IMG/VR virus record: IMGVR_UViG_3300025529_000003
Length of the DNA: 48,626 bases
Strand: one strand, 5' to 3'
From: a virus
The notes under the pieces: model-generated
The model's database searches: none
Told to the model about the DNA's origin: nothing
What the model saw: the letters and a program-made list of their open reading frames with translations, nothing else
Translations under genes and position numbers: made by a program
In this document: piece by piece, positions 2,537 through 28,166 of the stretch
Numbering within the stretch: position 1 is the stretch's first letter
How the letters are laid out: every line of letters starts with the position of its first letter

Positions 2537-2905
2537 TCACTCCGAATAAAGTAATCTTTTCAAAGTCTTGACTATATGTGGTATTGGCTCACTGGTTGCC
2601 CTAATATGCGTGTCAATTTCCATCAACCCCTCGATCAGCTTGGCCCGTTCCTCCCGCAGCTTCCGGTTTTCATCTTCCAGTTCTCGAACAATTTCCTTGT
2701 ATCCATCAACCGACATTTTCAGGCATTCTCGGCATGGATTTTCTTTCGTGCATTCGTCCCGCTTGTCCAGTTCAGACAGGAGGAAACGTACATCAGTTGG
2801 AGCATTCATAAGGGCTGATTCAGGATTATTTTCCGAATCTAGCTTTGAATTCTTTGCCGCAATGCAAACAAGTTCTATCAACCCATGAATCATCCAACAT
2901 CCCAT
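2537..2905 (-). CDS. Hypothetical coiled-coil protein. Start uncertain.
   Basis: 122-aa ORF with a Glu/Arg/Leu-rich heptad-like segment. Confidence 0.5.
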   Translation of the reverse strand: MGCWMIHGLIELVCIAAKNSKLDSENNPESALMNAPTDVRFLLSELDKRDECTKENPCRECLKMSVDGYKEIVRELEDENRKLREERAKLIEGLMEIDTHIRATSEPIPHIVKTLKRLLYSE

Positions 2906-2945
2906 CTTTCCCGAATCTTCGCGATCTTCTTTTCCTTGTCCATGG

Positions 2946-3365
2946 TCATCCCTCCATCACCGCCAGTAGAGCAGCTTTGCAGCGGTCCGCGGGCGAAGCG
3001 TGGACGTAATCAAACATCGTCACATAGTCATTGTTGTTACGAACGACGATTTGGAGTGCCTGACAATACGCAACCCGAAGATACAGTTTGTCGATTTCTT
3101 CCTCTACTTCCCACGCGGCGGCTATGTCGGTGGAATAGCGCGGTATGTCTTCCCATGCCTTTTTCTCTGTTTGTCTCCACCCACAATTTTTCCACCCACC
3201 ATTGAGGGGTCTAATGTCGTTTTCTCCGAATTCACCGATCACGACAAAATTACGCACATCGTCCCGCGTACATATTCGCGCATTAAATATCTCTTTTGCT
3301 ATCCACACATCCCGTTCGCGTGGCGTCAGACTGTCCCACTTCGCCAATATCTCATCACGGGTCAT
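2946..3365 (-). CDS. Hypothetical phage protein, 139 aa.
   Basis: ORF whose ATG overlaps the upstream stop (ATGA). Confidence 0.55.
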   Translation of the reverse strand: MTRDEILAKWDSLTPRERDVWIAKEIFNARICTRDDVRNFVVIGEFGENDIRPLNGGWKNCGWRQTEKKAWEDIPRYSTDIAAAWEVEEEIDKLYLRVAYCQALQIVVRNNNDYVTMFDYVHASPADRCKAALLAVMEG

Positions 3366-4796: not shown

Positions 4797-5561
4797 CTAC
4801 AAAATCAACGACGTCGGTATGACCGACAACATCTTTTCATGCGCCAATCGATACATGTCCTTCTTGATTTCGAAGCCATAGGCGTGGCGATTGATTTCGA
4901 CCGCCGCTCTCAGGGTGGAACCGCTGCCTGCGCAGGGGTCAATCACGACGTCGCCAACGTCCGTGAATATCTCGATAAGTCGTTTCAATAGCGGAACCGG
5001 CTTCTGGGTGGGATGGATCTTCGGACTATCGTCCGTCTCCCACTTGAACCAATTCAGGATCATACGGCCATCGTTGTTGAACTTCGGAAGCTTGTCACGA
5101 TACAGAACGAGTCCGTATTCCGTCGCGCCCACAATCTTCATGTTCGCCTTCAGCACTTGGGGCGACGATGATTTGATGAACACCAGCGGGATGTAATTCT
5201 TGAATCCATATTTCTGTCCTTGCTCAACAACGAGTTGAAGCTGCTGGAAGGAACAAAACACGATCATGGCCGGCGCCCTTCCCCGTTCCTTCGGCTCCTT
5301 GATCAGCATCTTCGAACAGAAGTGCATGAACTCTGGAATCTTGAAGTTTTCGTCGGTATCGAAGAAGGCTTTCCCCGCCTTCTCGGACTCGCCTTTTGAA
5401 AGATCGCCATCCACATACCACTCGGGGTTGCTGGCATACGCATTGCTGCCGAGGTTGTACGGAATGTCAGCTATGACCAGTTGAGCCTTTGGGATGTTGT
5501 ATCGCTTGTAATTTTGGAAATGGTCGTTAAAGAGCTGGCATTTGATCTCCATGTTACTCAC
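4797..5561 (-). CDS. Beta-class N4/N6 DNA methyltransferase.
   Basis: ADIPYN (DPPY-type) precedes HPTQKP and IDPCAGSGST. This order is typical of the N6_N4_Mtase family. Confidence 0.85.
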   Translation of the reverse strand: MSNMEIKCQLFNDHFQNYKRYNIPKAQLVIADIPYNLGSNAYASNPEWYVDGDLSKGESEKAGKAFFDTDENFKIPEFMHFCSKMLIKEPKERGRAPAMIVFCSFQQLQLVVEQGQKYGFKNYIPLVFIKSSSPQVLKANMKIVGATEYGLVLYRDKLPKFNNDGRMILNWFKWETDDSPKIHPTQKPVPLLKRLIEIFTDVGDVVIDPCAGSGSTLRAAVEINRHAYGFEIKKDMYRLAHEKMLSVIPTSLIL

Positions 5562-18250: not shown

Positions 18251-18496
18251 TTATGCGGTTATTTGCAACCTCGAAATAACGGTTTCCGTTAGTTTGTCAT
18301 CAAAAAAAACTTCGACTGGTTCTCCGAGGACATTGGCAATTACTTTCAGTCGCTCAACGTCCAGGCTGGTGTCACCATTTGCAATGTGACGATAACCCTG
18401 AAGCGAAAGGCCCAGCGCATTCGCCAGCCTAGTCTTGGTCACACCTTTTGCCTTTCTAATTTTCTCTACATTTACGTGCACCACCCTAATCACCAC
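18251..18496 (-). CDS. Cro-like XRE HTH regulator. Exact start uncertain.
   Basis: KGVTKTRLANALGLSLQGYRHIANG. Divergent from the repressor gene. Confidence 0.7.
   Translation of the reverse strand: MVIRVVHVNVEKIRKAKGVTKTRLANALGLSLQGYRHIANGDTSLDVERLKVIANVLGEPVEVFFDDKLTETVISRLQITA
18277..18291. promoter_or_regulatory. Operator-like palindrome TAACG-N5-CGTTA, the remote copy at the 3' end of cro.
   Basis: taacggtttccgtta. Confidence 0.55.
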
Positions 18497-18503
18497 CTTC
18501 CAA

Positions 18504-18518
18504 CTAACGCGATCCGTT
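18504..18518. promoter_or_regulatory. Operator-like palindrome TAACG-N5-CGTTA.
   Basis: taacgcgatccgtta in the cI/cro intergenic region. Confidence 0.6.
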
Positions 18519-18530
18519 ACTTAAATAATA

Positions 18531-18545
18531 CTAACGACTTCCGTT
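18531..18545. promoter_or_regulatory. Operator-like palindrome TAACG-N5-CGTTA.
   Basis: taacgacttccgtta in the cI/cro intergenic region. Confidence 0.6.
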
Positions 18546-18632
18546 AGTGTCAAGTGCTTTTTCTCATTTTTCGTTATTTATATATCGTTTTACGTTAGCT
18601 GTTGGTATCATATTCGCAAGGAGGCAAGAGCG

Positions 18633-18995
18633 ATGTCGTCAGTAGGCGAGAGAATTAAGCGGCTCCGCAAGGAGAGAGGATGGACGCAAGCCGAGTTGGC
18701 TAAGCGAGTGAATAAATCTCCCCAGGTAATTTCAAATTGGGAACGTGATTATACTTCACTTTCCCATGATGATGTCGCTGGGCTCGCGAGAGCATTTCAA
18801 GTACCAGCAGATGTGATACTTGAGACTTCAAAAACCTCAGAAAATCAACTGAACCGCGATCTAATGATCACGGCTCAAAAAATCGAAGAACTTGCAAGGA
18901 AATATAATTTAAAAGTCTCAGACCCTGAGTTCCAAGAAATACTTACGAAGGCGTTTGATCTCGCACTCATTGTGAACAGAAAGGAGACGGAGTAA
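18633..18995 (+). CDS. cI-like XRE repressor, 120 aa, with no S24 peptidase domain.
   Basis: RKERGWTQAELAKRVNKSPQVISNWERD HTH. AAGGAGG RBS. Short helical C-terminus only. Confidence 0.75.
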   Translation: MSSVGERIKRLRKERGWTQAELAKRVNKSPQVISNWERDYTSLSHDDVAGLARAFQVPADVILETSKTSENQLNRDLMITAQKIEELARKYNLKVSDPEFQEILTKAFDLALIVNRKETE

Positions 18996-20601: not shown

Positions 20602-22089
20602 GTGGCGTCGTTTGAACGAAGGGGGAAAAATTCATGGCGTCTGGTCCTCTCTCTCGGGTTTGGACCGAACGGAAAACGGATGAAGCAGTATCAATCGCTG
20701 GTAATAGAAGATCCAGCACTGCAACAGTCCATCTCGGCTCTGGATGAGATCGATCCCAATATTCTCAAGTCAGCAAATAATCTGAACCGATTTATCGAAA
20801 GTAAAGAGGCGACTTCGACGGCGATTCGGCATGCGAAAAAGTTGAACCAACATTTCCAGGACGAATACCTCAAGTTTAAGTATCAGGCCGAAACCGGATC
20901 GCTTGTGAGGGTAAAAAAGATCAAGTTCGCGGACTTCGTAGAAATTTGGCGCGAAAAATACGGATCAGATCCAGAAAAGCTCTCACCAGCGACTTACTCC
21001 AACTACAACATCGTCATCAATTCACGGCTCATTCCGGCTTTTGGACATTTCTGGATCGATGAGATCACGCCGCTCATGATCCTGTCGTTTCTAAAAGATT
21101 TGGAGAAACCAGGCGCCAGGCTGACTCCGAAAATGTCCGGAACACTGACCGAACGGCAAAAGGAAAAACTGATGAAACCGCTCGATGTAGGAACGATCGG
21201 GTATATTTATCGCGTTCTGAAGAATATACTCAACCGAGCAGTAGAATGGAAACTACTCGCGGAGAATCCGATGAACGGTATTCCGAAACCCGGCGAAAAA
21301 GACCCTAAGAGAAAGCTTCTCGAGCAGCGGGAAAATCCACAGTTTTATGACGAGGCCGAAGCTCAGCGTGTCGTCGATGCGCTCTACAAAGAGTCACGTA
21401 AATGGAGACTCCTGATATTGGGGTCCATGATTGGCGGCGCCCGTCGGGGAGAACTGAACGGTTTGGAATGGCCGTACGTCCATTTTGATGAAGGGTATAT
21501 TTCCATCGAGAACAATATCCCTCTATCGAAAGACGGGAAAGCAGTTGAGAAAGGCCCAAAGTCGATCGCATCATACCGCAACATAGACATGCCGAAATGG
21601 TACATGGATGAGCTGCGGGCGTACAAAGATGAGTGGAATCACGAGAAGGAACAGCTCGAGGCTGAGGGGCTCTGGCAAGGTGGAGACCGTCAGTACGTCT
21701 TCCATAACGGCACCGGCAAGCCGTACTACTACCAGCACCCATCAAAGTGGTGGAAACGGTTCTGTGAGCGGCATGGCATCCGATACATCAAATTCCATGG
21801 CCTCCGGCACAGCTCCGGTACACTGCTGCTTGAAGACGAAGACGTGTCGAATTTTGATTCGATCTTGAAGGTAATCCAGCAACGGCTCGGCCATTCTAGG
21901 TTTTCCACTACGTCGGACATTTATGTGCATGTCACGAAAAAAGTCAAGCGGCGTGCTGCCGGCAAATATGACAAGTTCGCCAGAGGTAATGCTACCATTC
22001 CGAGGGGGGACAATGGGGACAAATTGGGGACACAAATCTTCGGAAATGATCATTTCGAATCGTCCGAAAACAACCTCCCATTGCAATAA
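20602..22089 (+). CDS. int: Tyrosine integrase, large, 495 aa.
   Basis: AGGAGGG RBS with a GTG start. Catalytic ARRGELNGL (R), HGLRHSSGT (HxxR), LGHSRFSTTSDIYVHV (H...Y). Confidence 0.9.
   Translation: MASFERRGKNSWRLVLSLGFGPNGKRMKQYQSLVIEDPALQQSISALDEIDPNILKSANNLNRFIESKEATSTAIRHAKKLNQHFQDEYLKFKYQAETGSLVRVKKIKFADFVEIWREKYGSDPEKLSPATYSNYNIVINSRLIPAFGHFWIDEITPLMILSFLKDLEKPGARLTPKMSGTLTERQKEKLMKPLDVGTIGYIYRVLKNILNRAVEWKLLAENPMNGIPKPGEKDPKRKLLEQRENPQFYDEAEAQRVVDALYKESRKWRLLILGSMIGGARRGELNGLEWPYVHFDEGYISIENNIPLSKDGKAVEKGPKSIASYRNIDMPKWYMDELRAYKDEWNHEKEQLEAEGLWQGGDRQYVFHNGTGKPYYYQHPSKWWKRFCERHGIRYIKFHGLRHSSGTLLLEDEDVSNFDSILKVIQQRLGHSRFSTTSDIYVHVTKKVKRRAAGKYDKFARGNATIPRGDNGDKLGTQIFGNDHFESSENNLPLQ
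22016..22048 (+). repeat. Arm-type repeat cluster (3x GGGGACA) inside the 3' end of int.
   Basis: GGGGACAAT GGGGACAAATT GGGGACACAAA. Confidence 0.6.
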
Positions 22090-22389: not shown

Positions 22390-22749
22390 TCAAAATTCCG
22401 GCCGTTCCGCTGTCAGAATATCCAAAAACGGCACCTTCTCGATCGTAGTGAAATGCTTGATATGCACCCGACGCGTTTCCGGATCCATCTTCACGATTTT
22501 TCCCCGGATCGGGATGTCGCGGCCCCAGATCGTGATCTCGAGTTCGCGGCCCTCCTCCATCGCATCCTGCAGCCTGACGGCCAACTCCTCGAGCTCGAAT
22601 TCGTCGCGGACCGGTCTCTTCGGTTTTGCCATGGCAATTTCCTCCCTGTGGCGCACAAGCGCCTCTTTGTGTTCTGGAATGATCATCCGACTTCCTTCCC
22701 ACAGTAAGTTACTTCCTGGTGACAATTTCGTGAGCTTGATTCCAACCAC
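22390..22749 (-). CDS. yolD: YolD-like protein. Start uncertain: GTG at 22749 or ATG at 22686.
   Basis: W-x4-MIIPEHKEAL...VRDEFELEEL pattern typical of YolD. The first codon of the track ORF lies inside the promoter -35. Confidence 0.6.
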   Translation of the reverse strand: MVGIKLTKLSPGSNLLWEGSRMIIPEHKEALVRHREEIAMAKPKRPVRDEFELEELAVRLQDAMEEGRELEITIWGRDIPIRGKIVKMDPETRRVHIKHFTTIEKVPFLDILTAERPEF

Positions 22750-22765
22750 CCCCCCCGTGTAAGCG

Positions 22766-22794
22766 ATTATATACGAACATATGTTCTGTTTCAA
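22766..22794 (-). promoter_or_regulatory. Consensus sigma-A promoter with a LexA (Cheo) box in the spacer.
   Basis: Minus strand TTGAAA-17-TATAAT. Box CGAACATATGTTCT at 22774-22787. Confidence 0.7.
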
Positions 22795-22994: not shown

Positions 22995-23648
22995 TCAAAG
23001 CTTATTTTTAGGTTTCCACTCCCAAATATTGATTCTTGATGCATATTTGTTTCGAATGTATTCGCCAAACGCATTTTTTCTTGCTCCCGCAGGGGAATAT
23101 TTATTCTTTACAACACCCGTTAACAAATCACATATTTGAACAACATCGCATTTATCCGATGCGGTTGATTTGCAGGACTTAACACTATAATTATGACCTT
23201 CCAGAAAAGCCTTCTCATTTAAATTACGCATTAAGTAACTATAAAAGTTATCTTCTTTTAATCTGTTTTTTTCGTCAGGGCGAATATGTATGTCATCAAC
23301 TCTTTTTTTTATATGGTGATAAATCAATAATTCAGAAAACTTGTTATATGCAAGGTGTTTTTTATATCCAAAGTACTTTAGATCAACGTCTTCCTTCCTA
23401 ATCACAATGGATTTAAAACTAAAATAACACCGAAACGCCTCATCTAATACCTCTTTATATACTCTATCTCGGAAGTTAGAAAAAACTTGAAAATGAATTT
23501 CATCATAGAATTTATTTTTATCCCTAACAGAGCGAACGATATCAAGTAGCTTACGCTTAACAGAGGAAGTCATGCAAAGAATACCAACAATAAAAATGTC
23601 ATCTCCTGGTTCCCCGGACTCATCCTGAAATACCCAATACTTTGACAT
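22995..23648 (-). CDS. DUF3800-family protein.
   Basis: N-terminal VFQDESGEPG...FIVGIL and C-terminal VQICDLLTGVV. GGAGGAG RBS. Strongly AT-rich gene. Confidence 0.65.
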   Translation of the reverse strand: MSKYWVFQDESGEPGDDIFIVGILCMTSSVKRKLLDIVRSVRDKNKFYDEIHFQVFSNFRDRVYKEVLDEAFRCYFSFKSIVIRKEDVDLKYFGYKKHLAYNKFSELLIYHHIKKRVDDIHIRPDEKNRLKEDNFYSYLMRNLNEKAFLEGHNYSVKSCKSTASDKCDVVQICDLLTGVVKNKYSPAGARKNAFGEYIRNKYASRINIWEWKPKNKL

Positions 23649-23775: not shown

Positions 23776-24573
23776 TCATGACTCACACGCTATTCCGTCA
23801 CCATCTCGATCAAGCTTTTCACTATATCCCGGATCTCCCCGGTACAACGGTGCTACGCCGGCTGCCCGCGCCTCAGCGCAGGATGCAAACTGCTTAGACT
23901 GGCCGGACACCTCGCTCGATCCATTCGTCGTTCGCTTTGCATCCGCATCGAGTTCGCCAAATGTAACGACAAACTTTACGCGCGTGCCGTCCGGATACTT
24001 CTCGAGCGAATTGCCAACCCAACTGCCAGCGCCGCGGTTCTCCGCCGGGTCGATGTACGTCACAGAAGCGCCGGCGCCGCCTTCAGCGCAGACGGCCATC
24101 GGCCACTCATCGCGATCGTAACCATCCCGCGTCGGGATGCCGTCAAGCGACGCCTCGCGGCGCTGGTCCGCACCGTATCGGTCGATCGTGCAGACAGAGC
24201 TTTCGCCGGCAAGGATCGCGCTGGCGATGTGCGCGGCAACGGTCGGAAAACGATCGGCTGGGAACTCCAGAATCGCGTCATAATTTTCGGCTTCCGGTGC
24301 TCCGTCGGTCGTAATACCGATGGTCTGCGTCGCCCCATCCCAGGTTATCTGTGCGCCGAGTGCCTCGCCGACTGCTCGGAGTGGTAAGTACGTGCTGCCG
24401 TTGTAGGTGATAGGTGTCTGCGATGGCTGCCAAAGTCGTCCATTCAATGCAATTTTGATCCCGTGATTCAGATGCGCCTGAATGGCCTGCAGATTCGCGC
24501 TGGCGTTCAATACCACAGGTACGGACGCAATCATGAAAAACACTACAAATGAAACGAGCAGAATCTTTCTCAA
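23776..24573 (-). CDS. Secreted NucA/NucB-type DNase with an N-terminal stalk-like domain and a C-terminal Excalibur domain.
   Basis: Signal peptide [45 protein letters not shown] nuclease core. [10 protein letters not shown] Excalibur motif. Confidence 0.7.
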
Positions 24574-24770
24574 TTTGACCCCTCCCGGCTGATTTTCTCC
24601 TCGATCGCCCGAACAATAAACTCGTTCAGACTCTTGTACCCAAGCTTTGTTGCCAACTGAGCGTAGTTTTCTTTTTCGCCCTTCGGGACCACTACCTGAA
24701 TACGGTCATACGCTTTCTTATTGTATCTATTTTTTGCCTTTGTTGCAGGATTACCTTTTCTTTCATCCAT
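24570..24770 (-). CDS. Ribbon-helix-helix (Arc/CopG-like) regulator.
   Basis: 66 aa. [20 protein letters not shown]...[16 protein letters not shown]-coupled to the nuclease gene. Confidence 0.6.
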
Positions 24771-24810
24771 TCTGATCACCATCCTTTTTCCAGTATAGTA
24801 TCAAAGAATA

Positions 24811-24828
24811 TATACTTATGCAAGTACA
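24811..24828. promoter_or_regulatory. Operator 1 (imperfect palindrome) overlapping the -35 of the RHH promoter.
   Basis: TATACTTATGCAAGTACA. Minus-strand promoter TTGCAT-17-TACTAT. Confidence 0.55.
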
Positions 24829-24835
24829 TTTTCTC

Positions 24836-24864
24836 TTGACAATATACTTATGTAAGTATATAAT
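24836..24864 (+). promoter_or_regulatory. Perfect-consensus sigma-A promoter with palindromic operator 2 in the spacer.
   Basis: TTGACA-17-TATAAT. TATACTTA-TG-TAAGTATA at 24843-24860. Confidence 0.75.
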
Positions 24865-24891
24865 AGAATCAGAAAGGAGGTGAACAAGAGG

Positions 24892-25098
24892 ATGGACAAG
24901 CACACCATGAGAGCTATCGAAAAGCTTCAAAAACGCGAACACTTCCTGCGGATGCTGAATGACCGATTGGCGCGCGGCATCATCACCCGGGAAGTGTTCG
25001 AGAAAGAACAGGCCGGTATCTACGAGATGACAGAACTGACACCCGAAGAAAACCGAGCCTACCGTCAGTATACCAGACAGCAAGCCAAACGCAAGTAA
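24892..25098 (+). CDS. Hypothetical basic helical 68-aa protein.
   Basis: AAGGAGGTGA RBS 8 nt before the ATG. Confidence 0.6.
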   Translation: MDKHTMRAIEKLQKREHFLRMLNDRLARGIITREVFEKEQAGIYEMTELTPEENRAYRQYTRQQAKRK

Positions 25099-25158
25099 GG
25101 TTCACGGAGAGGGCTCCGGCCCTCTCCCCCAAACATTCAAAATAAACCGGAGGGTCAA

Positions 25159-25308
25159 ATGAAACTCAAGTATTTGGATTACGCGGTTTATGGGAATGTT
25201 ATCGTGCCACTTGTCATTTTCGACTCAAGCGTTTGGTTTCGGATCGACGCTGATGCTGAGGCTGGTATTTGCCGAGTAGAGTGCCGGCGTAGGAAGGACA
25301 GGAGGTAA
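25159..25308 (+). CDS. Possible 49-aa protein.
   Basis: GGAGGG RBS. Its 3' end supplies the RBS of the next gene. Confidence 0.3.
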   Translation: MKLKYLDYAVYGNVIVPLVIFDSSVWFRIDADAEAGICRVECRRRKDRR

Positions 25309-25315
25309 TGTTATA

Positions 25316-25501
25316 ATGTCAGAAATCATCTTCGAGAGGATTGACACTGCCGGGGCAACCGGAACATACGACGGCAAGCTGTTTGAGGTTATTGCTGAAA
25401 GTGAAGACGATCTCGGGAACATTGCGGAAGGAATTGTCGAGGGTGATTTTACTTTCGAGGAGCGTCTGGAAATCTTCTATGCCTGGGAGATGCAATATTG
25501 A
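25316..25501 (+). CDS. Highly acidic 61-aa protein (16 D/E against 3 K/R).
   Basis: AGGAGG RBS. Composition counted from the translation. Confidence 0.6.
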   Translation: MSEIIFERIDTAGATGTYDGKLFEVIAESEDDLGNIAEGIVEGDFTFEERLEIFYAWEMQY

Positions 25502-25513
25502 TCAAACAAAAAC

Positions 25514-25545
25514 ATCCCCGCCCAGCCATATGGCCGAGCGGGGAT
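25514..25545. terminator. Bidirectional terminator between convergent genes.
   Basis: ATCCCCG...CGGGGAT stem with an inner GCCATATGGC palindrome. Flanked by an A-run and a T-run. Confidence 0.6.
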
Positions 25546-25551
25546 ACATAT

Positions 25552-26352
25552 TTAAAAGAGTCCTTTGCGGTGCATCACCGTCAGGATTCGGTAGAAATCG
25601 AGGCTGCCGCCATGCGGAGTATCGACGACGCCGGCAGCGATCGCCGCGTCAACGGCCGGCTTTGCCCATGCGGGCACGTCCATCGAATGTGCCGCGAGCA
25701 GCGCGCCAACCTGGGCGGAAAGGGCTGCAATCCCCTCCCGGAGCGCTGCCACATCCTTGCGGAGCGCTTCGAATGCCGCCTTTTCCTCTTGCGTCATTGG
25801 CTTCTCTACCTCCCATGGAAAGATCCAAAATTGCCGCGCCTCGCGCCTGAAAACATCGTCCTTCGCCCATACCACGCCGTCATTGCGGGCGCCCTGATCT
25901 ATCAGGCCGTCCGCGCCGTATTTGGTGTTGTCGTGGTTTGGGTCGAATACTTTGATCCGGCCTTTCTCAACAGCCACCAACAGGATATAGTGGCCGCCGC
26001 CAGTGAAATGCCCCGGCCCCATGGACGCGATGACGAGCGCGCCCTGCTCAAGGGCTTGTTTCGCGGTCTCAAACACGGCTGTTTGATACATCTCAAGCCC
26101 GTACTGCTTCGCCGCGGCCCCGAAAAATCCCCACGCGGTCCCGCTGTTCGCGGTTCGGTATCCGTTTTTTACCGCGAATTGGCACAATTCAGGAGGCAGG
26201 ATCTCACGGCCGAGCAGCGTGCTGGCGACCATGGCCATGCACGTCGGGCCGCAGCCGGACGTGCCGATCGTCTGTGCCGGGTCATTTCGGATCGTGTACG
26301 GCCGCCCGGCCCAGCGCTTGTCCTCCTGGCTGTAGTAGACGACGGCCGTCAT
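25552..26352 (-). CDS. Endolysin: C39-like cysteine peptidase with a C-terminal SLH-like wall-binding segment.
   Basis: GTSGCGPTCMAM (catalytic Cys), GGGHYILLV (His), DVPAWAKPAVDAAIAAGVV. Confidence 0.7.
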   Translation of the reverse strand: MTAVVYYSQEDKRWAGRPYTIRNDPAQTIGTSGCGPTCMAMVASTLLGREILPPELCQFAVKNGYRTANSGTAWGFFGAAAKQYGLEMYQTAVFETAKQALEQGALVIASMGPGHFTGGGHYILLVAVEKGRIKVFDPNHDNTKYGADGLIDQGARNDGVVWAKDDVFRREARQFWIFPWEVEKPMTQEEKAAFEALRKDVAALREGIAALSAQVGALLAAHSMDVPAWAKPAVDAAIAAGVVDTPHGGSLDFYRILTVMHRKGLF

Positions 26353-27548: not shown

Positions 27549-28166
27549 ATGACTATAAAAGACATATTTAATTGCGATACCATAATTCAGGCAGGTCTTC
27601 AAGCAATTCCATACGTGGGAGGTTCCATTTCAACCCTTATTTATAACAGCAAATTAGAGAAACGACTCAAACGACTTGAAGAATTCTATAAAGACGTTGC
27701 CAATACGATTAAAAGCATTGATGAAAAACCCGCACCAGCCAGTGCACATGATGCCAATTCATTATCTTCAATTTTGGAGAAATTAAATGATCAAATCGAA
27801 AAAGAACATTTGGAAAGAAAAAGAACTCTCTACAAAATATATTTTATAAAAACCTTATATCACCCAGTAACAGTAGAAAATTATGACATTAGAATGTTGT
27901 TTCTTGATATTCTGGAGCATTTGACTGAAACACATATTGATATATTTACTTTCTTGGTCAATCAAAACAATCCGGTTATTGATAAAAGCATTTCTGCGGA
28001 AGGTGTAAGTCCAGCTCTTGTTCAAGGATCAATATCGCAATTAAAGATACATGGTCTGGTCGACTCAAGATTACATGGAGTTACGATTTCAGCAAATAGT
28101 GAAATTTCAGAGTTAATTTGGGTCAGCCAATTGGGTCGTGAGTTCCACGACTTTTGCATGGCTTAA
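27549..28166 (+). CDS. Orphan 205-aa protein, AT-rich and opposite-strand.
   Basis: GGGAGG RBS. No family recognised. Helical, Lys/Glu/Ile-rich. Confidence 0.6.
   Translation: MTIKDIFNCDTIIQAGLQAIPYVGGSISTLIYNSKLEKRLKRLEEFYKDVANTIKSIDEKPAPASAHDANSLSSILEKLNDQIEKEHLERKRTLYKIYFIKTLYHPVTVENYDIRMLFLDILEHLTETHIDIFTFLVNQNNPVIDKSISAEGVSPALVQGSISQLKIHGLVDSRLHGVTISANSEISELIWVSQLGREFHDFCMA

Follow-up and report, generated by a model that had tools for sequence, protein, structure and literature searches.

The small-protein operon and its probable repressor

The window analysed here is a 48,626-nucleotide stretch of viral DNA (IMG/VR record IMGVR_UViG_3300025529_000003), which looks like a complete temperate phage genome of the siphovirus or myovirus type. 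It contains a cassette in which a promoter precedes three genes for very small proteins, of 68, 49 and 61 amino acids (aa), and the gene for a ribbon-helix-helix (RHH) protein runs divergently from it (Table 1). A sequence-only reading of this DNA had described a very strong promoter clamped by the RHH protein, and had proposed a candidate anti-defence or DNA-mimic locus. The cassette was compared with homologous loci, which are referred to by L numbers where they need to be told apart.

Promoter sites with no more than one mismatch number four in the window, against 0.04 expected. The promoter of the small-protein operon is the only perfect one, in agreement with the sigma-A consensus that had been claimed for it. 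Also as claimed, its spacer is filled by a palindrome, O1, with a near-copy, O2, lying upstream. The two operators are 32 bp apart, start to start, and differ by two changes over 20 bp. The leader between the −10 hexamer and the Shine-Dalgarno sequence is conserved across homologous loci, even where the operator was swapped. The hairpin behind the 68-aa gene recurs at the same position in homologous loci and may be an attenuator or a 3′ stabiliser.

The start codon of the 61-aa gene is overlapped by an extended −10-like motif, TGTTATAAT (25308-25316). This motif belongs to an imperfect direct repeat of 32 nt, shared with 25192-25223, which is probably coincidental. The motif was considered as an internal promoter for the 61-aa gene and rejected, since an element overlapping the start codon of that gene cannot serve it as promoter.

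The divergent protein belongs, by its sequence, to the Arc/MetJ (RHH) class, with an N-terminal beta strand, two helices and likeness to known RHH proteins. Repressors of this class bind as a dimer of dimers to operators that are palindromic or tandem. It matched AmrZ (3qoq) over residues 8-65 (E = 0.0027), and among the PHROGs it matched phrog_13890 at 1e-18 and, weakly, the Arc-like phrog_582 (0.08). A tblastn search returned an annotated 'Arc-like repressor', and the orthologue in L011 gave weak matches to the RHH models of HicB, NikA and TacA. No Pfam model scored above threshold for the RHH protein. The start of the nuclease gene overlaps the stop of the RHH gene (TTGA), which indicates that the two are co-transcribed. 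An extended −10 element, TGATATGAT, is present in L011 at the position equivalent to the putative promoter of this operon.

Table 1. Features of the cassette and of the phage genes discussed with it, in positions of the window
Feature	Position	Strand	Remarks
Sigma-A promoter TTGACA-17-TATAAT	24836-24864	+	Drives the small-protein operon; 12/12 consensus
−35 hexamer TTGACA	24836-24841	+
−10 hexamer TATAAT	24859-24864	+	Spacer of 17 nt
Operator O1, ATATACTTA-TG-TAAGTATAT	24842-24861		Perfect palindrome; fills promoter spacer and overlaps −10 hexamer
Operator O2, ATATACTTATGCAAGTACAT	24810-24829		Imperfect copy of O1; overlaps −35 and spacer of the putative RHH promoter
Shine-Dalgarno sequence AAAGGAGGTGA	24873-24883	+	Of the 68-aa gene
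68-aa gene	24892-25098	+	Basic three-helix protein (model); new family, sub-threshold SHOCT-like motif
Hairpin	25106-25127	+	GC-rich, −20.7 kcal/mol, without U tract; after the 68-aa gene
49-aa gene	25159-25308	+	'LDYAVYGN...' family (f50); stop overlaps Shine-Dalgarno sequence of next gene
61-aa gene	25316-25501	+	Acidic protein; new family; four beta strands and C-terminal helix (model)
Terminator hairpin	25514-25545		Bidirectional; common to the small-protein operon and the convergent lysis operon
RHH repressor gene	24570-24770	−	Arc-like; 66 aa from the likely true start (24770); alternative start 24782 gives 70 aa
NucA/NucB-type nuclease gene	23776-24573	−	Secreted; signal peptide, Cu_amine_oxidN1 stalk, Excalibur domain
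Putative RHH/nuclease promoter TTGCAT-17-TACTAT	24795-24823	−	Extended −10 (TGA upstream); −35 inside O2; read from sequence
CI-like gene	18633-18995	+	Switch about 6 kb from the cassette
Cro-like gene	18251-18496	−	Partner of the CI-like gene in the switch
Tyrosine integrase gene	20602-22089

RHH homologues are encoded in four lineages: that of the window, L011-14/L038, L039 and L043. The operator motif ATATACT-N6-AGTATAT, with no or one mismatch, was found only in these four, and a perfect match was absent from the 22 fetched loci checked that are without an RHH homologue. In all four lineages, one copy always occupies the spacer of a TTGAC(A/T)-17-TATAAT promoter and a second lies 32-33 bp upstream; this spacing of the O2-O1 pair is conserved in L011, L039 and L043. 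The 7-bp outer arms, ATATACT and AGTATAT, are invariant across the lineages, and the central 6 bp vary. A co-variation of the RHH beta strand with the operator centre was considered and rejected, as the centre varies freely in the four lineages while the arms do not change. Where the neighbouring regulator is of the helix-turn-helix (HTH) families HTH_26 or HTH_3, unrelated repeats occupy the same promoter position. These data are strong comparative evidence that the RHH protein binds sites of the O1/O2 type.

The arrangement in L043 is informative in this respect. The RHH gene has another location there; it is convergent, and is translationally coupled to f50, the homologue of the 49-aa gene. 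The operator pair or an O1 copy is nevertheless present at two different perfect promoters, one of them driving the 68-aa gene, which suggests that one RHH protein gates at least two consensus promoters. The comparison across loci shows the RHH-operator-promoter unit to be, as far as sequences can tell, a portable gate. With operator and RHH gene co-occurring in four diverged lineages, the proposed binding of the RHH protein to both palindromes, and its clamping of a very strong promoter, have good comparative support, and we regard the reading of the unit as an RHH-gated regulatory device as probable.

A second O2-O1 pair with a perfect TTGACA-17-TATAAT promoter lies at L043 2063-2529, divergent from the RHH gene. 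The second gated gene encodes a very acidic protein of 126 aa, in which a ParB/Srx-like motif, 'GSHRLAA', was recognised by eye.

Protein families of the operon

Positions 24356-25617 (1.26 kb) are 100% identical in the contigs covering them, except for L007, which differs at a few positions, none of them within the 49-aa or 61-aa gene. Distant homologues were therefore used to judge whether the genes are real. By this comparison all three short open reading frames are real genes, each in a conserved family, including the 49-aa frame that had been listed only as 'possible'. No family in Pfam, PHROGs, NCBIfam or PADLOC scored above threshold for the three small proteins and several of their homologues. 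Neither the 68-aa nor the 61-aa protein was matched by tblastn against GenBank phages, and a DNA search matched the nuclease core only. Profile searches of the small proteins against the PDB found nothing, and a Foldseek search of the PDB with the 68-aa model gave nothing significant. On these searches, the 68-aa, f50 and acidic proteins represent three previously undescribed families.

The first protein had been described as basic and helical. Its model has three helices, with a predicted local distance difference test score (pLDDT) of 94.9, and its net charge is +5, as computed on P0002, a cluster relative 99% identical to it. Metagenomes, IMG/VR contigs and eight genome records contain relatives with 43-74% identity; seven of the genome records are from Paenibacillus. 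In an alignment of seven sequences KLQKREH, G29, T32 and RAY are invariant. The protein scored 15.3 bits with the SHOCT model (PF09851), below the cut-off of 27, and two homologues scored 16-17 bits with the SHOCT-like DUF1707, below the gathering threshold of 27.6. These matches are consistent with one another but sub-threshold, and suggest a resemblance only.

In all 22 lineages that have upstream sequence, the gene for the 68-aa homologue is preceded by a promoter matching the consensus in at least 10 of 12 positions, and in eight the match is 12/12. In these loci the promoter is gated by a small repressor of the RHH or HTH type, whose gene is nearby. The identity of 43-74% is held while the class of the neighbouring repressor (RHH, HTH_26 or HTH_3) and the operators change. 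Between the window and L013, for example, the CI proteins are only 25% identical and the 68-aa proteins 74%; a role as a CI-specific antirepressor was rejected on this comparison. Conservation against changing repressors and operators indicates that the protein is not a partner binding either of them. A Cro-like, anti-RHH or CI-specific partner is thus unlikely, and action on a conserved target would be more likely.

The 49-aa protein belongs to a family of about 50 aa (f50) with the motif 'LDYAVYGN.IVPLL...AG.CR'. Its gene adjoins the 68-aa gene in 22 of 23 distinct Paenibacillus (pro)phage lineages, co-directionally in 10 and convergently in 12, and in all but one lineage it lies within about 90 nt of the hairpin that follows the 68-aa gene. 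The co-directional set comprises the window, L017, L022, L029, L030, L033, L044 and L046-L048; the convergent set comprises L011-L016, L031, L032, L034-L036, L039-L043, L045, L049 and L050. Where f50 is convergent, it closes a late (lysis), early or RHH operon, and in those 12 lineages it would be separately transcribed. A type I toxin or a secreted peptide was rejected as an identity for f50, the sequence having neither a hydrophobic stretch of transmembrane length nor a signal peptide. Judged by its distribution, the conserved payload of the cassette is the pair of 68-aa and 49-aa proteins, which the sequence-only reading missed, and the acidic protein is not its conserved core.

The composition reported for the 61-aa protein was confirmed, with 16 Asp/Glu against 3 Lys/Arg and a net charge of −13. 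A word-indexed search recovered only the protein itself, and an exhaustive HMMER search with a follow-up profile search recovered a small family. The scan of IMG/VR with the family profile gave no match, and a metagenome scan found the window lineage only. Residues G16, G20, F23, G43, F45, E49, I53 and W57 are invariant. E49 is the sole acidic one among them; charge is kept in composition, not in position, and every member has a net domain charge of −7 to −13.

Genes of the acidic family usually lie close to the beginning of operons that diverge from a small repressor, and this holds in several phages that are not related. The gene is first after a divergent RHH gene in L021, behind a TTGACA promoter flanked by palindromes, second after a divergent RHH gene in L052, fourth after an HTH_3 regulator in L022 (P. 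cymbidii) and first after an operator-repeat region in L053; in L023, L026 and L054 it lies within runs of small early genes. In L053, a 63-aa homologue of AcrIC5 (2870-3061; Pfam, 71.6 bits against a cut-off of 27) is encoded 0.9 kb upstream of the family member. This homologue sits in a cluster of small genes adjoining the small terminase gene.

The order of 68-aa family, f50 and acidic family is repeated in P. cymbidii at about 40-50% identity. The genes downstream of the pair vary, however: the acidic 61-aa gene in the window, a 62-aa gene in L030, a 189-aa gene in L033 (close relative L044) and, in L022 of P. cymbidii, genes for a 54-aa protein and a 102-aa acidic-family protein, in an operon that runs on into ligase and Rep_O genes. 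This variation suggests that the acidic protein behaves as swappable cargo.

Several family members have C-terminal extensions, and the acidic domain is also fused to other modules (P0011, P0012, P0015, P0010, P0025). In P0025 it is preceded by an N-terminal CxxC...CxxC zinc ribbon. In L032 a separate gene of 75 aa (4926-5153), located downstream of the 68-aa gene, resembles by eye the C-terminal module of P0011 and P0012 ('VLPPATY...GEPYSH...GQW.Y').

DNA mimics present on their surface an array of carboxylates spaced like the phosphates of DNA. Acidic DNA-mimic or decoy inhibitors such as Ocr, ArdA, Ugi, phi29 p56 and AcrIIA4 are very small and strongly negative. The 61-aa protein is like them in its size, in its net charge of −13 in 61 residues, in the conservation of charge in its family and in the promoter-proximal position of the genes in early operons. 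It differs in having no sequence or Foldseek similarity to any PDB entry, those proteins included. The structure prediction that had been suggested as a check gave a confident model (pLDDT 86.5) of four beta strands and a C-terminal helix, which matched no known structure or mimic: the best PDB hit had E = 0.31 with a template modelling score below 0.5, the best BFVD hit had E = 0.07, and neither was significant. The reading of the protein as a DNA mimic thus found no sequence or structural relation to a known mimic.

Genome setting

On the minus strand, structural and lysis genes extend from about 48.6 kb to 25552; among their products are a C39-like endolysin, a holin and an XhlA-like protein. 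The accessory region that holds the cassette has the integrase gene and attP on one side and the lysis genes on the other. The neighbours of the cassette there are a YolD-like gene, a DUF3800 gene of low guanine-plus-cytosine (GC) content, and the RHH gene with the secreted nuclease. The hosts of the relatives found were all Paenibacillaceae (Paenibacillus spp., P. cymbidii, Gorillibacterium) or uncultured.

The identical block 24356-25617 comprises the N-terminus of the nuclease, the RHH gene, the promoter, the three small genes, the terminator and the C-terminus of the endolysin. Its flanks are 87-96% identical or non-homologous, with differing nuclease C-termini, endolysin types or catalytic domains, and tail modules, so that on alignment it looks like a recently exchanged recombination block. 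The cassette has a GC content of 44-51%, against 55% for the phage, and this and the shared block speak for a horizontal origin. The nuclease and the 49-aa and 61-aa genes are absent from L011-14, which keep the RHH and 68-aa genes. With its own promoter and terminator, its atypical GC content and its presence/absence polymorphism among related phages, the cassette has the features of a phage moron.

Other genes of the region were noted. The DUF3800 protein (22995-23648, minus strand; 217 aa) is matched by PDC-M04A, a candidate defence family of PADLOC (E = 5e-17). Its gene has a GC content of 33% against 55% for the phage, is missing in the sister contigs L003, L005 and L006, and probably represents a moron of the defence type that was acquired recently. 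The YolD-like gene (about 22390-22794) is closely preceded by a near-consensus promoter, TTGAAA-17-TATAAT (22766-22794, minus strand), whose spacer contains GAACATATGTTC, judged by eye to be a Firmicutes LexA (Cheo) box. The position of this LexA-type box suggests SOS control of the YolD-like gene. The main early promoter, TTGACA-17-TATTAT (18525-18553, minus strand), lies between the CI-like and Cro-like genes and has its spacer filled by a palindrome, CTAACG...CGTTAG, the same operator-in-spacer design as that of the small-protein promoter. A 205-aa gene (27549-28166, plus strand), placed between the lysis cassette and the tail genes, is transcribed against the late genes around it, which are on the minus strand. 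The 205-aa protein gave weak matches only (CARF-like, E about 0.02), is conserved in L001 and L002, and resembles a moron insertion.

Interpretation and alternative explanations

We tentatively read the locus, which lies in the accessory region of a temperate phage of the Paenibacillaceae, as a portable expression cassette gated by a repressor; with the mechanism and payload proposed below included, this reading falls somewhat short of probable. A weak extended −10 promoter would produce the 66-aa Arc-like RHH protein together with the NucB-type nuclease. The RHH protein would bind the two 20-bp operators, whose distance of 32 bp places them on the same helix face. Bound at O1, over the spacer and −10 of the perfect promoter, it would shut out RNA polymerase; at the imperfect O2, over the −35 and spacer of its own promoter, it would give autoregulation of the RHH-nuclease operon. 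When phage DNA enters a cell that lacks the RHH protein, the consensus promoter would fire at once, giving a burst of the 68-aa, 49-aa and 61-aa proteins. The RHH protein would then build up, shut the operon off and keep it silent in the lysogen.

The 68-aa/49-aa pair would act on a conserved host or phage component, and not on the repressor or its operators. The acidic protein would be variable downstream cargo, most likely an inhibitor that binds a host protein, either a nucleic-acid-binding or a defence protein. An anti-defence or host-directed (take-over) payload is the function we favour, because the genes are promoter-proximal early genes, the cargo varies, acidity is conserved and an Acr homologue lies near one member of the acidic family; it is a possibility held with considerable doubt. 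More doubtful still is a specific form of this proposal, in which the acidic family has a new fold, inhibits a defence or DNA-binding protein of the host and travels as exchangeable cargo with the near-universal Paenibacillus-phage pair of SHOCT-like 68-aa protein and ~50-aa partner; the pair would be a new two-protein effector/antagonist system, held under a maximal promoter by small repressors that are interchangeable.

Several observations weigh against this reading. The three proteins have no similarity, in sequence or fold searches, to any known anti-defence protein or DNA mimic. The neighbours of the cassette are genes of the lysogenic-conversion or defence type (DUF3800/PDC-M04A, the secreted nuclease, the YolD-like protein). 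The convergent placement of f50 is more easily reconciled with a relation of partners or antagonists than with a payload that is simply co-expressed, and the hairpin after the 68-aa gene may end much of the transcription ahead of the 49-aa and 61-aa genes. For the divergent operon, the consensus scan lists another minus-strand site, TTCACC-18-TATACT (24884-24855), and not TTGCAT-17-TACTAT. The burst-then-shut-off timing is one we infer from acr-aca operons (PMC9410906, PMC6765145) and from the immI region of phage P22.

The comparison with anti-CRISPR (acr) operons holds in part. The aca gene of an acr-aca operon lies behind the acr genes, within one and the same operon, and Aca1-10 are of the HTH type (PMC9410906). 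Like operons of this kind, the present locus has an inverted-repeat operator inside a strong core promoter, with O1 in the spacer and over the −10, and a small repressor that limits very small phage proteins (PMC9410906, PMC6765145); its small cargo also varies between relatives. Unlike them, its regulator is an RHH protein and not an HTH protein, and is encoded divergently at the head of a nuclease operon instead of downstream. No Acr homologue was found among the three proteins (Pfam including PF22147, PHROG, and PDB by sequence and fold), and the conserved payload here is the 68-aa/f50 pair. The locus is not a canonical acr-aca operon, and the 'Acr/Aca layout' invoked for it is an analogy only; the accompanying remark that no similarity to a known inhibitor could be recognised has held in sequence and fold searches.

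A likeness of a different kind exists to the immI region of P22 (mnt / arc-ant). There, an Arc/Mnt-type RHH gene lies divergent from a strong, operator-occluded promoter, outside the main CI/Cro region, and a burst of expression at infection is followed by shut-off. The present locus has the same divergent RHH gene, occluded promoter and position outside CI/Cro, and by analogy a burst and shut-off would be expected. It differs in having one RHH protein, not two, three tiny proteins unlike Ant, and co-transcription of the RHH gene with a nuclease gene.

The cassette might accordingly be a secondary immunity or switch region of the immI type. The RHH protein would then act as Mnt/Arc, the 68-aa protein (with the ~50-aa protein) as a small antirepressor or regulator of lysis-lysogeny, and the acidic protein would be a passenger. 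The small first gene behind a gated strong promoter agrees with this. So does the arrangement in L017, L022 and L030, where the 68-aa gene heads the operon in the 'Cro position' beside an HTH repressor and, in L022, the operon runs into replication genes. The window also holds a separate canonical CI/Cro switch (18251-18995), which makes the cassette a second regulatory unit. The conservation of the 68-aa protein argues otherwise: it is maintained between the window and L013 where CI is not, and across unrelated repressors and operators, so that it is not specific to them. The protein also lacks an HTH or other DNA-binding fold. We consider this explanation improbable.

We give the same low standing to a three-component toxin-antitoxin or abortive-infection module that guards the lysogen. 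Omega-epsilon-zeta modules keep an RHH repressor separate from a two-protein pair, a layout shared by the present locus, and here the 68-aa protein would be toxic, the ~50-aa protein its antagonist, and the RHH or HTH protein a lock in the manner of omega. The near-constant pairing of 68-aa and f50 genes, whatever their orientation, would be expected of such a module, and the coupling of f50 to the RHH gene in L043 would co-express antagonist and lock. The maximal promoter would be tightly repressed, and the cassette lies in a prophage accessory island beside the candidate defence gene DUF3800/PDC-M04A. On the other hand, the proteins have no homology to epsilon or zeta and no PADLOC, Pfam or NCBIfam match, the partners are of 50-70 aa, and their orientation varies and is often convergent. 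The pair heads early operons in L022, L017 and L030, running into replication genes in L022; the putative antidote of the window lies past a strong hairpin, an odd stoichiometry for an antitoxin; and the 68-aa model is that of a plain soluble helical protein. Nevertheless, since the two genes are paired almost universally, whichever way f50 is oriented, and f50 is coupled to the RHH gene in L043, the toxin/antagonist and regulatory-pair explanations remain serious ones.

An ordinary lysogenic-conversion moron, at least leaky from the prophage and aiding the host by superinfection exclusion or modulation of competence, with no role in infection, is quite unlikely. The paratox protein (Prx) of Streptococcus pyogenes prophages offers a precedent, being a small conserved phage protein that adjoins toxin genes, modulates competence and binds the DNA-binding domain of a host regulator (PMC8383118, PMC6224593). 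The site between the lysis genes and attP, beside a secreted nuclease, is similar (PMC8383118, PMC6224593), and the cassette has its own promoter and terminator, a GC content below that of the phage, and a 100% conserved block that mosaic phages share. However, a co-resident autoregulated RHH protein should hold a promoter with an operator in its spacer off in lysogens, and homologous pairs head early operons in L017, L022 and L030. Paratox belongs to another host family, no homology or fold match to it, or to other PDB entries, was found, and the consensus promoter of the present locus is repressor-gated.

The nuclease neighbour suggests one further role, that of an intracellular immunity protein. 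Bacillus subtilis NucA has the inhibitor Nin. The proposal that the acidic 61-aa protein is a Nin- or barstar-like protein for the adjacent NucB-type nuclease draws on the plausibility of an acidic inhibitor of a DNA-binding enzyme and on the co-occurrence of nuclease, 49-aa and 61-aa genes in the window lineage and their absence from L011-14, but is very improbable, since no NucA/NucB is found among the called neighbours of the acidic genes in L021, L022, L023, L026, L052, L053 and L054, the nuclease has a signal peptide and is transcribed from the opposite promoter, which is regulated differently, and the 61-aa protein has no Pfam match and hence none to a known inhibitor family. A nuclease-inhibitor pair was rejected as a candidate on this lack of co-occurrence across relatives (L021-L026 and L052-L054). 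A 265-aa protein of L029 has only the N-terminal stalk in common with the nuclease of the window, and not the nuclease part.

The repressor-gated cassette remains the reading we prefer. The locus is a real, well-delimited and moderately interesting candidate: a small-protein operon under a repressor gate, built from three undescribed protein families, whose value lies in being well delimited and testable. If the reading is correct, the perfect sigma-A promoter, whose spacer holds a 20-bp RHH operator, would be a clean, portable off-switch for Firmicutes. The phages of the Paenibacillaceae, a family that includes the bee pathogen P. larvae and plant-associated species, would carry three uncharacterised small-protein families specific to them, among them a candidate acidic inhibitor with no detectable structural relatives. 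The conserved anchor pair with its variable cargo would then be a landmark of the type that has been productive for the discovery of anti-defence genes, as aca genes have been elsewhere.

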